From NCBI GenBank assembly GCA_010093605.1, contig MU004195.1, positions 1,317,566 to 1,381,565 on the forward strand: a stretch of DNA of 64,000 bases. Reading direction: 5' to 3'. This DNA comes from Lophium mytilinum. Its lineage: Eukaryota. Below, in pieces: positions 1,156-56,676 of this stretch. The first letter of the stretch is position 1. Every line of letters starts with the position of its first letter. The position numbers and the translations under genes are program-made. The notes under the pieces are model-generated. The model worked only from the letters and a program-made list of their open reading frames with translations. It was not told where the DNA came from and ran no database searches.

Positions 1156-1933
1156 ACCGAGGACGAGAGCGGTGTATGATTAGATAGCGATGTTCTCTGT
1201 TGGCTTCAAATCGATTGAGCGTGGGCTGAACGGCGGCTTTTCTACATTTGAGGATTGACTTGAGTTGTATATATGTATCATCACTCTTCTGCTCCTCCAA
1301 CATGTGCGAAAATAGTCTCAGGTATATATTCTTGATTGCTTGCACTGGGCTTGGGTGTCCAATGATCCGTATTACGATGTTGGGTGTGCGTGCAGAAACC
1401 GCGCGCGACGCGCCGCCCGCCTCCTGCAATCCATAGACAACAAGCCAAACCACCATCTCGCCGAGCTTCACAGGCGTGATGGGGTGGACGCGAGAGCCAA
1501 AGCTCTCCAAAGATGTCCTTGCAGGATGGAAGAGCGAAAGGTGAACAACGCGAGTGGCCTCAGGGGAGGATGCTGAATAGGGTGAACGAAAACATACATG
1601 TCCAATTGTCTCCAAATTGCATCAAGAACCTTAAATGACACAGTACAAGTGATCGCAATGAGGTGAAATGATTTAAGAACTCAGAACGTGGGTACTGAGC
1701 GGGGTGGAAGAAAGTAAACAATCGCGAGACTCGCGAAAAGCCTCAAAACACCTCGAAAAACCCACTCCCAGGCGTTTCACCGCGGTGAAAAGCCTCTCAA
1801 GCCCTCCAACCCACCCAGCTCCCCTCCCCCTCACAATCCCGCAGCTCCCCGCGCGCGGGAAACCAAATGTAGCGCCCGCCTTCCTCACTGATACCATACA
1901 TACCCCATAATTCCGCTCACATTTCACTAATAA

Positions 1934-2162
1934 GCAGGTTTACCTAGTTGGTTCCGCTCTCCCTCCGAGCCCGATGCACCGCCCCTCACCAACCGAGCCG
2001 GCCGACGTCGCCAACTCGCCCCGGGTTCGATTCCCAAAGCGAGAATTAGCATGTACGGTACTTGCAATAAGCTAACCTACGGGCGTGAGCATGTGAACCG
2101 GCTACGGAGAAAACCTGGAGAACGGGTTTTCTACACCTCCCATCGGGGGAGGTGGTGTTTTT
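1934..2162 (+). ncRNA. Putative Pol III-transcribed structured ncRNA of unknown family
   Basis: A-box-like TACCTAGTTGG at 1941-1951, B box GGTTCGATTCC at 2024-2034, several stems, two 3' hairpins, then T5 (2158-2162) and longer T runs. No tRNA cloverleaf. Confidence 0.55.
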
Positions 2163-2186
2163 GCTCTTTTGATCTTTTTTTTTTTT
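2158..2186 (+). terminator. Pol III-type oligo-T terminator
   Basis: TTTTT, TTTT and a T12 run immediately after the last hairpin of the ncRNA candidate. Confidence 0.5.
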
Positions 2187-2784: not shown

Positions 2785-3895
2785 TCAACCTCCCCTCGGC
2801 GGAGGCGGCCTCATCAGCCGATTCCTAAACGCATTCCCCAGCCCAGGCCCCCTCGCCGCAGCAGGAGAACTCCCCACAAACGAGCTCCCTCCCATCATGG
2901 AGCTCCCATCTTCACTAAACATACTCGTCCTCGCAGCAGCGCCACTTCTCGCCCCCAGCCTCCTCCCACTCTGCGGCCTATTGATACCACTCCTCCTCCC
3001 CTCGAAGCTCATCTCCTCCATCTCGGAGCTCTCATCCTCCAGCTCGGTATCCGTATGCTGATAGCTCCCCGCCTCCGGCACATCATCATCCAAATCCCGC
3101 TCATCCTGCAGCACGCCCGCCATATCCGCCTCCTCCATCTCCAGCATCTGCTCGACATCCGCCTGCACCATGCTGCCCTCAATAAAAGAGTCCTCATTAA
3201 ACGTCATCTCGGCCTCCGTCTGCTCAAGCCCATCCTCGCTCCCCATCTCGCTCGTGCTCTGCACCTCATCGCTGTCTTCGGCCTCCGCTTCGGGCACCTC
3301 GTCGTCCAGATCCCGCTCTTCCTCATCTCCGTCTCCCTCCTCTTCGCCGGCCTCCCGTTGCGCGGCAAGCTCCTCTGCTTCCTGGAGAGCAGCCATGTCG
3401 GCGAGCGCCTGCTCCCGCCGCGCGAGGATCTCTTGCTCCTCCCGCTCGGCTGCCTCGTCCATGGTTGCTTGGTATGTCTTCGGTACGCCTGGGGGACGGA
3501 TCCAGCCCGCGCCGAAACGCCTCACATTCTGCTTGCGCTGGAGGATCGAGTTCTCATCCGCAGCTAAAGACGCGAGGGTACTGCGCGTAGAGCCGGCATG
3601 GGTGTGGTGGGAGTGCGGGCGGCGTTGTTGCTGGTGGTGCGGTGGGGGCGCGTTGTTTGGGTCTGTGGAAGAGGAGACGGGGCTGTCGAGGGAGCTAAGG
3701 CGGGAGGTTGGGTGGGAGGGCCAGAGGGTGGAGTCCTGCGGATTGAAGGTTAGAGGTCTGAAGTTTGAGGTTTCTGTTTGTAGAGTGTGTATGTAAGATT
3801 TCTGGGAGGGGCAATTCTAAGGCTGAAACCCGCAAGGGAGGCTGTGTTGGGGCGGGACTTACGTCGCGGGGTGTTATGAGGGGGAGGGAGAGCAT
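2785..3895 (-). CDS. Apc15p-domain protein (APC/C subunit Mnd2/Apc15-like)
   Basis: Exon 1 MLSLPLITPRD (3895-3863), intron GTAAGT...TCTAAC...CAG, exon 2 3735-2785 in frame. Contains RRFGAGWIRPPGVPKT and acidic ERDLDDDVPEA repeats typical of fungal Apc15. Confidence 0.75.
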
Positions 3896-30297: not shown

Positions 30298-30520
30298 TAT
30301 TGACAAAGCGTCTATATTGGCCCACAGGAAGAGGACCATTTTGGCACCGTTGAGATGTATGAAGTGGAGCCAGTCCGTGCGATTTGGTCTCGATTTCAGC
30401 GTATTATTGACAGAGCGTCTATATCAGCTCACAAAAAGAGGATTGTTTGGCATCATTGAGATGTATGAAGTGGAGCCAATCCGTGCGATTTGGACTCGGT
30501 TTCAGTATATTATTGACAAG
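30298..30520. repeat. Tandem direct repeat, ~106-bp unit, ~2.1 copies
   Basis: TGAGATGTATGAAGTGGAGCCA.TCCGTGCGATTTGG at 30351 and 30457; TATTGAC at 30298, 30405 and 30511. Confidence 0.85.
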
Positions 30521-35654: not shown

Positions 35655-36320
35655 ATGTCGGAACTCTCCATCTCGAGGAACGGTTCCTATCCAACAGACT
35701 GGGGTTTAGCGATTCTTTACTTTCCGGCCAGCATTGGGATGATCCGAGCATACATCTATAACCAACTGGCTAGGACCTTTTACATCGTGTCTTTCATCTG
35801 GATCCTCAGGGCGAACAATTTCCATTGGACTACATTCCTTTGGGTTTTTCAGGCATCACTGTTTATGGCCGTGTTTATCAGTGAGATGCTTTGGCTCCTC
35901 CTCGCCGTCGCCCTTCTCTTGTACGTTTGGAGGACGTGCGGGATTCTTATCAAGATCTTCAGTGACCCCAGGTCTTGGTTCAATTGGTTTCTCACAACTC
36001 TTGCGCTCTTTTGGTACCCCCAGCTCTGGTACTATTGGGATGTCACAACTCTTGGGCCCTGGTCCAATTGGCTGCTCACAACTCTTGGGCCCTGGTGCAA
36101 TTGGTTGCTCACAACTCTTGAACCCTTGAGACACCCCTCGTCCTGGTACAACTGGTCTCTCACAGCTTTGGAATCCTTGAAACCTCTGGGCAGGTTTTCG
36201 ATGGATGTAATAATGTTTTTATTGCATCTATATATGTTCGGCATGGTGGTTTCAGCGTTTTGGGCGCTCGGAGAGAATTATGAAAAGAGTCTAGCACACA
36301 CAGGATGGGATTTTAGCTGA
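35655..36320 (+). CDS. Orphan Trp-rich membrane protein with internal 11-aa repeats
   Basis: 221-aa ORF, several TM-like segments, repeats WxNWxLTTLxP; CT-rich leader. Confidence 0.55.
   Translation: MSELSISRNGSYPTDWGLAILYFPASIGMIRAYIYNQLARTFYIVSFIWILRANNFHWTTFLWVFQASLFMAVFISEMLWLLLAVALLLYVWRTCGILIKIFSDPRSWFNWFLTTLALFWYPQLWYYWDVTTLGPWSNWLLTTLGPWCNWLLTTLEPLRHPSSWYNWSLTALESLKPLGRFSMDVIMFLLHLYMFGMVVSAFWALGENYEKSLAHTGWDFS
35976..36177 (+). repeat. 33-bp coding tandem repeat (TGGTNCAATTGGNNNCTCACAACTCTTGGGCCC), 5 related units
   Basis: CACAACTCTTG recurs four times plus one diverged copy, all in frame. Confidence 0.85.
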
Positions 36321-43476: not shown

Positions 43477-45379
43477 TCACGCGAGATCTGGCACACGGCA
43501 TTGGCGGTGTGTACCGTCAGCACGACGGTACATCATAGCGTTCTCGTCGAACTCTTCGACGTCTGGGCTATCGTCATTGTTGTCGTATGCATAAGGTGGC
43601 GCAGTAACATTTGGCCGCTCCCCGTGCTGCAGCCGTGCGTCCAAGTGCTTGGTATCGAAAGTGCTTGAGAATGATCGTTTCGTTCCTGCTGCTGATTGGG
43701 GCTGGCTGCCAAACTTGGGTGGGTAACCATGATCCGAGCTGGCTGACATTGAACCGGGTGCTGACAGAGGACCGCCTGATAGAGGACCACCAGAAAGAGG
43801 ACCACCTGATAGAGGACCGCCAGACATGGGGCCACCGCTTAGCGTATAGGAAGGAGACACAGGCTCAGGCCTTTCTGCTGGAGGCTGTAAGGTCTGCAGT
43901 GTTTTGATGTGAGGAAGCGAGTGACCGTTGGACATATGCATCGCACCAGGAGTCGTAGGAGGACCTCCGTGGTGCGAAGGCTGCATTGGTTGATTACTAG
44001 CAGTGGAAGGAAGCTGTGGCCGGTTGTAAGCGCTGTCTAGAGTGCCGAAAGGAACCATTGAGTTGGGAGCGGAGTATTGCTGAGTGGTGGTCGGAGTCAA
44101 GGAAGGACGCCGATATTCGGTTGGTGTTCCCGTGTAATCAGTGCTCTCCTGGCGCATGGGTGGTGGCTGCTCGTAGTGAGGCTGAGAATAGGACTGGCTC
44201 GGGTAAGCGTACGGTTGCGGCATATGCATTGCAGGTTGGCTCGGGTAGCTGTGCTGCGGCTGGTGAGATTGATGCTGATACGGGGTCTGTGGCGGTTGCA
44301 TCATTGAGCTTTGCTGCGGCGGTGCATACTGATTCTGATACTGCTGGCTAGGAGCTCCTCCATACTGCATTGGCGGCGGGTAGCCATTGTTCTGGGGTTG
44401 AGGAGTGGCCATGTGCGGGAAACTGTTCTGCTGATATCCTTGAGCCATATCCTGGAGAGAAGGACGACGCGCAGGAGGGCCGAACGAGGCGTTGCTAGCA
44501 TTGGAGACGGATCTGGGACGGTCACTGGCATCAATCAAGGGCTGAGGCGTAGCCATGTTTTGCTGTCCGTAGGCATCTGGCGTCGCAGTTCGTCGGGTGG
44601 CATCGTAACCGGCCTCCTCGTCGTACTCGTCCCAATCCTTGGACGACTTGTTCTCGCGCCTCCTCATGCGAACGTCACGACGTATGCGAACGCGGCAACC
44701 CTGCTCGGCGACCATGCGGCTGGGAGCAGTGCTTTCGGTCAGACCTGGGAACTTCTTGGCCGAGAAGACGGTGAATGGCGATGACTTGACTTCCAATCGG
44801 TGTGAAACGTGGGCATCGACCTGAGGGGGAGGAATAGTGCCACGGTCTTCAGCGTCCATGTCTTTGGGGTCCTTCAATTCTTCGTACAGGGCGAAGCTCA
44901 GACGGTACTTTCCTTCATGGCGAACCGACAGGTCGGGGAAGATGAAATAGCCAGCGGGAGTGGGCCGATCCAGGTACGCCATGCCGGCCACGGGCGTGCC
45001 GGTGAGAACGGCAAACTGCGTGGAGGTAGCTGGCACACGGCCTTGGGCCACCTGTCTGGCGTTCTCCAGAGTCGCAAAGAGGAAGAAGTTGGCGCTGTAA
45101 GAGATGGTCACCTCGGTCATGTTGCCGGGCTCGCCTTCATAGACGCGCAATTCCACGATTGGCGGCGGGTCGACTGGACGACGATCCGCAGAGGCTGCAT
45201 GAGTTAGTCGCGGTGTCTCACAAGGCGCGAATCGACGTACATTTGGCACCCGAGCCACAGGCTCTGGCTCGCTCGGGCTGCTGGATCACCGCCATGCGAT
45301 AGGTGATCTTCTTGCCCTCCTTGGTTATCCTCGTCGACGTGCTGTTCGTCTCATTCTGAACGGGTATAATGGTCGCCAT
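43477..45379 (-). CDS. veA: Velvet-domain developmental/secondary-metabolism regulator VeA
   Basis: [38 protein letters not shown] | [65 protein letters not shown]-terminal MMYRRADG; intron 45240-45195. Confidence 0.95.
43760..43838 (-). repeat. 15-bp coding repeat (SGGPL/M x5) in the VeA C-terminal region
   Basis: AGAGGACC(G/A)CC(T/A)GA repeated on the + strand. Confidence 0.85.
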
Positions 45380-56342: not shown

Positions 56343-56676
56343 CTACTTCTTTTCCTGACCAGCAGTCTGGTTCGCAGCCTTATCTGCCGCAGACTGCACT
56401 CGCGCCGCGAATGCAGGGTCGTTCCCACTCTTAGCCTATTCCTATTAGCCTCGCAACATCTTCAGCGGACTTCTGCCAGGGTTGGCCTAGCTTGTAGTGT
56501 TCCAGGAGACTCACCTCAGCGGACTGAATGCGGGCGGCATCTTCTTTGGTCGTCTGGGCCGGGATGTTCCTGGGGTTTTTCTGGTCAGGTGCCTCAGCGG
56601 AGTGAATGCGGGCGGCTTCTTCTGTCGTAACCAGGGCCGGCATATCTCCGGGGGTGTTCTGGTCTGGTGGAGACAT
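56343..56676 (-). CDS. Small SMP/LEA-like hydrophilic stress protein
   Basis: Exon 1 56676-56515 (TTEEAARIHSAE, TTKEDAARIQSAE), intron GTGAGT...GCTAAT...TAG, exon 2 56435-56343 AKSGNDPAFAARVQSAADK. 84 aa after splicing. Confidence 0.7.

Follow-up and report, generated by a model that had tools for sequence, protein, structure and literature searches.

What is the stretch that lies between two convergent genes of this ascomycete fungus genome, one on the side of a YME2-like and the other on the side of an Apc15-like protein, and does it encode an RNA, spread as a mobile element, or act, if at all, as DNA? The original prediction had placed there an RNA polymerase III (Pol III) gene with internal promoter boxes and an oligo-T stop, and had left two readings side by side, namely an undescribed non-coding Pol III RNA and a tRNA-derived SINE; these remain the two leading ones. 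Our analysis of the 64-kb window (that is, the whole stretch of DNA that was presented) suggests as the most likely answer that the unit is real, repeated and kept in relatives, and that it encodes a hitherto undescribed small structured RNA. An open frame on the plus strand (1934-2215), for which no word-sharing protein was found among proteins of 51-163 amino acids, was judged to be spurious. The features on which the argument rests are collected in Table 1.

Table 1. Features of the unit and its neighbours, with folding z-scores for regions that were compared with shuffled sequence.
Feature	Position	Strand	Folding z-score	Shuffles as good	Remark
C-terminal part of RNA12/YME2 protein	ORF ending at 1155	+			Pfam PF10443, E = 1.7e-89
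Family TATA position	1894-1899	+			GTATAT in paralogues; CCATAC, without TATA, in the window's copy
Predicted start region and short 5' leader	1925-1933	+			Predicted from TATA at ~-30 and A box ~15 nt downstream
tRNA-like 5' end	1934-1957	+			Acceptor-strand-like heptamer, then D-arm/A-box-like word 1940-1951
A-box-like word TACCTAGTTGG	1941-1951	+			Sequence check
C-rich variable spacer between A and B boxes	1958-2014	+			Most substitutions and indels between copies
Long-range pair AGCCGG/CCGGCT	1996-2001/2098-2103	+			Sequence check
T-arm-like hairpin with B box 2024-2034	2015-2043	+			5-bp outer helix, 2015-2019 with 2039-2043
T-arm-like hairpin GGG-TTCGATT-CCC	2023-2035	+			Closed by CTCGC/GCGAG 2015-2019/2039-2043
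Conserved core of the trailer	2044-2107	+			Stretch 2061-2089 common to several copies
Stem TTAGC/GCTAA	2046-2050/2071-2075	+			Sequence check
Two 3' hairpins	2108-2132 and 2134-2154	+			Sequence check
Hairpin A	2108-2132	+			9-10 bp, loop within 2117-2123
Hairpin B	2134-2154	+			8 bp, loop 2142-2146
Termination region	2158-2186	+			T5 2158-2162, T4 2167-2170, T12 2175-2186
Apc15p domain protein	ORF 2785-3816	-			Domain match E = 2e-9
Folded region: two 3' hairpins	2104-2158		-5.0	0/200	
Folded region: 3' domain	2044-2163		-3.3	0/200	
Folded region: T-arm-like hairpin	2012-2046		-2.4	5/200	
Folded region: 5' half	1925-2045		-0.24	81/200	
Folded region: whole	1934-2165		-1.9	6/200	

A check of the sequence found every motif that had been reported for this locus in its place, which leads to the question of how readily such motifs arise by chance. 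The B box GGTTCGATTCC matches the consensus GGTTCGANTCC perfectly and occurs a single time in the window; at least one B box is also present in 18 of 100 shuffles of the window, and by itself this element is weak evidence. The A-box-like word, when read as 1940-1951, has two mismatches to a 12-nt A-box consensus, for 23% of random positions an equally good word lies 40-110 nt further upstream, and by itself the word is no better than chance and worthless as evidence. Of the type-2 Pol III layout that had been proposed, the B box and the T runs hold up; the putative A box has two mismatches and a long spacing to the B box (83 bp). An A-like word accompanied by a downstream T5 or longer run is encountered at 2.2% of random positions; when this is combined with the chance frequency of the B box, the full layout is expected ~0.004 times per window. 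The T12 run is the only run of ten or more T on the plus strand of the window. The strongest case against chance is, as far as contig alignments can tell, that the unit is repeated and conserved. Within the window itself, it occurs once.

Public contigs aligned to the region stem from four runs, i.e., X1 (27 contigs), a DNA run of the same organism, X3 (15 contigs), a run which holds RNA, and X4 and X5 (3 and 5 contigs, respectively), which represent relatives sampled in air metagenomes. The results given here are taken from the rows listed for these contigs, beyond which there are a further 27 pieces, 12 indels and 8 loose ends, and the evidence on copy number is contig alignment alone, with summed contig depth not being a copy number. 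The unit, comprising positions ~1894-2186, is on this basis multi-copy in the same organism, which is new with respect to the original prediction, as are its extension upstream to ~1894 and the tRNA-derived look of its head. Summed X1 depth amounts to 162-166 in the flanks and rises across the four bins that span 1870-2217 (475, 1556, 927 and 576). We consider as surer evidence of repetition that diverged versions of the unit are found on separate X1 contigs, each with the depth of a single copy (160-187), which continue into unrelated DNA. When the window's own context is included, X1 reveals at least four different 3' and at least four different 5' contexts, and the variant contigs alone add at least three further 3' contexts and at least three further 5' contexts. 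The X1 loose ends listed are located before 1915, 1924 (two reads) and 1994, and behind 2155, 2180 and 2181. Moreover, two X1 pieces (1987-2089 and 2061-2170) exhibit no difference from the window at depths of 304 and 311, that is, about twice the single-copy value of 162-166, so that a second copy does not differ from that of the window between 1987 and 2170.

The family is seen in relatives as well. In X4, the unit is located within a contig of 4948 nt and aligns over 1924-2181 with 17 substitutions and 14 gapped letters, and in X5 it is found with the same limits in short contigs. Of the 30 letters compared in each flank of the X4 copy, 26 and 27, respectively, agree with the flanks of one X1 paralogue (53/60; counted by hand); this locus is therefore common to two lineages, and the family is older than their split. 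Among the X4 substitutions listed, 11 of 12 fall into 1945-2046 and one into 2047-2181 (Fisher p = 0.0005), an asymmetry that would be reduced to p = 0.08 if the 5 of 17 substitutions that are unlisted were all in the 3' half; no listed X4 change lies within 2047-2145. For X5, there is no such asymmetry in number (6 substitutions in 127 positions of the 5' half versus 6 in 119 of the 3' half), and its four listed 3' changes either lie in loops or are compensatory. In none of the runs is there a variant between 2060 and 2090 among those listed, and contigs branch at 2061 and 2089. Indels are seen in the spacer, among them the loss of 7 nt at 1969 and the gain of 3 nt after 1974 as well as after 2007. 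No homologue was found beyond close relatives: a metagenome scan with a degenerate pattern of the core yielded three loci, none of which aligns to the unit, and the exact 22-mer of the core had no match in collections of genome contigs and viral contigs.

Comparison of the copies is likewise informative with regard to promoter and terminator. With loose ends read in fixed register with the adjoining homology, the word GTATAT is found at the family TATA position in paralogues a and b (X1), in paralogue c (X3) and in the X4 copy, the loose ends in question being those before 1915 and 1924 (X1), 1920 (X3) and 1924 (X4). Close homology between copies sets in ~30 bp downstream of this word (1915-1926), and the A-box word follows it at a distance of 45 bp. 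In-register identity of the flanks to the window is 12/20, 15/30 and 12/30 (binomial tails 0.003, 0.009 and 0.11). The repeated unit therefore extends into promoter DNA that lies upstream of wherever a Pol III transcript could plausibly begin. Being devoid of the TATA, the copy in the window may be a weak or decaying member of the family, and yet its trailer is identical to that of a second copy. Within 1894-1914, the window has C where the T-rich paralogues differ (5 of 8 mismatches to one and 5 of 15 to another), which could reflect either decay of the promoter of the window's copy or C-to-T change in the others.

The segment 1934-1957, which we take to resemble the 5' end of a tRNA, exhibits the changes T1945C and T1953C in relatives and paralogues. 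Paralogues and relatives retain the B box; one paralogue is altered solely at its free position (T2031A), and in this same paralogue the five letters immediately following the B box (2035-2039) are all changed. All copies seen finish in T runs, one of them keeping a T5...T6 layout, and the end of the repeated unit falls inside the last T run, with copies diverging fully after 2180/2181. This layout suggests that the unit may be transcribed by Pol III.

When folding energies were compared with those of 200 shuffles per region, the original description of the locus as 'highly structured' turned out to be apt for its 3' part, in particular for the two 3' hairpins, whereas the 5' half does not support it (Table 1). 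The folding energy is -29.6 kcal/mol for the plus strand versus -22.3 kcal/mol for the minus strand. Base pairs were followed through a few related copies by hand reading. In hairpin B, C2139T and G2149A occur together in three X1, two X3 and one X5 contigs and convert a C-G into a U-A pair, and the only other listed change, G2146A in X4, is located in the loop. In hairpin A, T2116C turns a U-G into a C-G pair, the changes listed at 2118, 2119 and 2121 are in the loop, and one copy contains an extra bulged T. No listed substitution breaks a pair in either of these two hairpins. In the T-arm-like hairpin, the fifth outer pair (C2019-G2039) becomes U-G in X4 owing to C2019T. In the T2031A paralogue, this pair becomes A-U and the outer helix is, by hand reading, lengthened to 7 bp, there being a 3-nt insertion after 2017 and changes at 2019 and 2035-2039; the resulting 7-bp outer helix on a 4-bp stem can be likened to the acceptor/T-arm half of a tRNA. 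The wobble pairs work on the plus strand only and, together with the difference in folding energy, seem to point to a plus-strand RNA. Taken as a whole, the structure-preserving changes appear to be suggestive of, albeit not proof for, a function as RNA.

Two of the pairings proposed earlier fared less well. The first pair of the TTAGC/GCTAA stem is broken by T2046C, with 2075 unchanged, in two versions (X4 and one paralogue), and the long-range AGCCGG/CCGGCT pair exhibits no informative covariation. A 12-bp helix pairing 1943-1954 with 2095-2107, which is part of the energy minimum, was rejected: the changes T1945C and T1953C (X4, X5 and paralogues) would disrupt two base pairs of this helix, and no change in 2095-2107 accompanies them.

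How might such a unit work? We consider the chances to be about even that it belongs to a small, dispersed family of Pol III genes in which a decayed tRNA-derived leader is followed by a conserved trailer of ~115 nt. In a gene of this kind, a TATA box, lost in the window's own copy, would be located ~30 bp before a start at ~1925, and TFIIIC would bind the A and B boxes and position TFIIIB and Pol III. The leader would be the decayed tRNA, with an A box and with the perfect B box lying within the T-arm-like hairpin, while the trailer of ~115-120 nt (about 2044-2162) would comprise the conserved core, the two stable 3' hairpins and the T5 stop with its back-up T runs; the predicted product is a structured RNA of ~240 nt. 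The acceptor/T-arm-like minihelix (2015-2043) might then be cut by RNase P or tRNase Z in order to release the trailer as the working RNA, a step which we propose because of the likeness to tRNA-led dicistronic Pol III genes. The motifs, the repetition, the conserved promoter and terminator elements and the structure-preserving changes are observed, and polymerase, start, processing and any cellular role are what we infer for this family. It is tempting to speculate further, and we do so tentatively and with some doubt, that the copies constitute a lineage-specific family of functional Pol III RNAs in filamentous ascomycetes, with a fossil tRNA serving as promoter and processing handle, a two-hairpin oligo-U trailer residing in a ribonucleoprotein, and copies being kept by selection and perhaps by gene conversion. 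If true, this would add a new small-RNA family to a Pol III transcriptome that is, for filamentous fungi, thinly charted beyond tRNA, 5S, U6, SRP and RNase P RNA. It would also provide a second example, after RUF70 of Yarrowia, of an orphan Pol III RNA on tRNA promoter elements, and a natural setting in which to examine how a tRNA gene comes to serve as promoter, SINE head or processing signal.

The closest known systems bear on this proposal. For Yarrowia lipolytica, PMC2566860 describes 13 tRNA-Trp/RUF70 units and 48 tRNA-5S rRNA units. Like the present unit, the RUF70 units described there are from an ascomycete, are multi-copy and dispersed, and have a leader with tRNA boxes that drives a short trailer, in their case released by tRNA processing (PMC2566860). 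Their leader is, however, a working tRNA and their trailer has ~70 nt, whereas we find no cloverleaf, an A-to-B spacing of 83 bp, and a trailer of ~115 nt that is unrelated as far as the comparison went; neither ARAGORN nor Rfam recognizes the leader as the working tRNA gene that membership in a RUF70-type family would demand. The same source reports for yeast RPR1 a tRNA-like promoter leader of 84 nt (PMC2566860). RPR1, SNR52 and ZOD1 of S. cerevisiae have transcribed leaders with regular A and B boxes outside any tRNA and with the working RNA downstream, which is the arrangement considered here. In contrast to our unit, which occurs in several copies and belongs to no known class, these yeast genes are each present once and code for RNAs that are known (RNase P RNA, a C/D snoRNA).

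Two further systems share traits with the unit. According to PMC10137851, the rodent 4.5SI and 4.5SH RNAs are small tRNA- or 7SL-derived Pol III families with A and B boxes and a TATA-like element at -31/-24; they are, however, RNAs of ~100 nt from another kingdom. In Neurospora crassa, the tRNA-led milRNA precursor tRNA-Ala/milR-4 requires RNase Z, and for a different milR locus transcribed by Pol III, a TATA-like element is important (PMC3547838). The milR-4 precursor is likewise a Pol III transcript of a filamentous fungus in which a tRNase Z cut behind the tRNA frees the downstream RNA; in contrast, it gives rise to a Dicer-dependent small RNA from a long stem (PMC3547838), whereas the hairpins here have 8-10 bp. 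The unit would work in the manner of the RUF70 and 5S units and of the RPR1/SNR52 leaders, but with a leader that is not a tRNA and a trailer without any known match, it belongs to none of the RUF70, RPR1/SNR52 and milR-4 families.

Run X3 allows one to consider transcription of the locus. That this run holds RNA follows from one contig that skips 2325-2422, which has GT..AG ends on the minus strand. The 98-nt intron removed in this contig has, more fully, the ends GTAAGT...ACAG, and the contig extends from the Apc15-like coding region to 2141. Hence, the minus-strand transcript has a long, intron-bearing 3' part downstream of the stop near 2785 and enters the unit antisense, as far as 2141. 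After splicing, one minus-strand frame is open from ~2600 to 2046; it resembles no real protein. On the other side, the YME2-like mRNA contig (depth 480) stops at ~1237, about 80 nt past the stop codon at 1155, and depth then drops to 0.15, which places the unit outside the 3' UTR of YME2. Depth in X3 is uneven altogether, with the value of 480 over YME2 to ~1237 being followed by 0.15 at 1261-1347 and by 4.3 over 1345-1810. The stretch 1700-1880 upstream of the unit is C-rich and of low complexity, with low X3 cover (4.3), and contains weak minus-strand terminator-like hairpins at 1722-1745.

The unit itself is covered at ~52 from 1880 on, i.e., from upstream of the predicted start, and the X3 contig carrying it is joined at 2141 to the minus-strand mRNA contig (depth 175). 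The marker of the twin copy (1986 A) has depth 0 of 212 in X3, and paralogues appear in this run with flanks of at least 255 nt, one of them being joined to 952 nt of transcribed downstream flank. It would seem that the X3 cover of the unit is explained equally well by overlapping Pol II transcripts as by a Pol III RNA.

We regard it as unlikely, but as deserving careful consideration, that the unit is a low-copy tRNA-derived SINE, in which case the Pol III transcript of a master copy would have been reverse-transcribed elsewhere and the 3' hairpins would serve as tail for a partner LINE. The tRNA-like head with A and B boxes, the size of ~260 bp, the sharp 3' limits at 2180/2181, and the dispersed copies with different flanks that are seen in X1 are all what one would expect of such an element. 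Its tail is a T run and neither A-rich nor a simple repeat, which speaks against a SINE, and some plant SINEs do end in T runs. No target-site duplication flanks the copy in the window: the best direct repeat has 7 nt and is found at 1855/2227, off the limits of the unit, and words of at least 7 nt are reached in 83 of 500 shuffles; for other copies, the flanks are known for 30 letters only. Furthermore, homology does not stop at the predicted start but continues upstream through the TATA in fixed register, which counts against a SINE because a retro-copied Pol III transcript would not carry an upstream TATA, and both the compensatory changes and the retention of the B box hint at selection.

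Known fungal elements allow the comparison to be made more precise. In PMC5063351, low-copy tRNA-related SINEs of Aspergillus fumigatus are described as having 140-493 bp and degenerate A and B boxes, with no cloverleaf. AfuSINE2, MgSINE and Foxy resemble our unit in that a head related to tRNA, in which the A and B boxes are degenerate, is joined to a body unrelated to tRNA, and in having a length of 140-493 bp and low to moderate copy numbers, AfuSINE2 being without cloverleaf (PMC5063351). The fungal SINEs described there differ in that they are defined by duplications of the target site (4-14 bp) and by tails that are A/T-rich or made of ACT repeats (PMC5063351), whereas the copy in the window is devoid of a duplication and ends in a T run, and the copies share upstream DNA with a TATA. 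Should the unit turn out to be a SINE nonetheless, it would be an ordinary addition to fungal repeat libraries, yet one to be masked by annotators.

Less probable still is that the unit is a repeated DNA element which acts in cis or not at all, that is, a decayed remnant of a tRNA gene that was spread by segmental duplication, gives rise to no working RNA of its own, and is perhaps kept because it binds TFIIIC, forms a barrier or serves as terminator for the convergent genes around it. Such a role would fit the location of the unit between two convergent genes, the spliced minus-strand transcript that reaches it at 2141, the paralogue that is joined in X3 to transcribed downstream flank, and the fact that the B box is the best-kept promoter element. 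The compensatory and wobble changes in three hairpins are, however, expected for an RNA rather than for a DNA site to which proteins bind, and the wobbles fit one strand; in addition, a transcription unit requires elements of just the kind seen in the T runs and in the TATA at its fixed register.

It is very improbable that the unit is a divergent member of a known Pol III RNA family (SRP, RNase P/MRP, U6, 5S or an snR52-type snoRNA) that was missed by the models. Its size and its layout of TATA, A box, B box and T run are reminiscent of fungal SRP RNA genes, and a putative 10-nt identity to a stretch of human 7SL RNA, together with another to a fungal 5S rRNA, is to be taken as a lead only. 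In agreement with the original prediction, the unit is not a tRNA, with ARAGORN predicting no gene in the window and no tRNA model matching at E<=10, and it carries no signature of a known RNA, Rfam 15 being without match, including the models for SRP, RNase P/MRP, U6, 5S and snoRNAs. More specifically, Rfam 15 yielded no match at gathering score across the 64 kb, and at E<=10 with lax filters, applied to 701 or 276 bases, it gave only two rows at chance level, both on the minus strand (HOTTIP_1, E 1.3; MIR8757, E 5.1). No Rfam model supports a C/D box, an H/ACA box or an Sm site, or the likeness to 7SL and 5S, and these candidates were set aside; inspection by eye likewise revealed no C/D or H/ACA box layout. 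Essential RNAs with a single function, moreover, rarely occur as several diverged copies. In the main texts searched, the 22-letter core word appears in no paper, and no matching family was found for filamentous fungi.

That chance motifs in intergenic DNA account for the locus is hardly credible: B boxes and A-like words do arise readily in shuffled or random sequence, but the complete layout does not, and the unit is repeated and conserved together with its motifs. Elsewhere in the window, short tandem or near-tandem direct repeats are found at 35971-36177, 43763-43837, 30340-30518 and 56514-56669. Among them are units of 39 nt spaced by 33/51 nt, units of 15 nt, and two pairs, one of 73 nt with 90% identity and one of 78 nt with 79% identity; they probably lie within coding regions.
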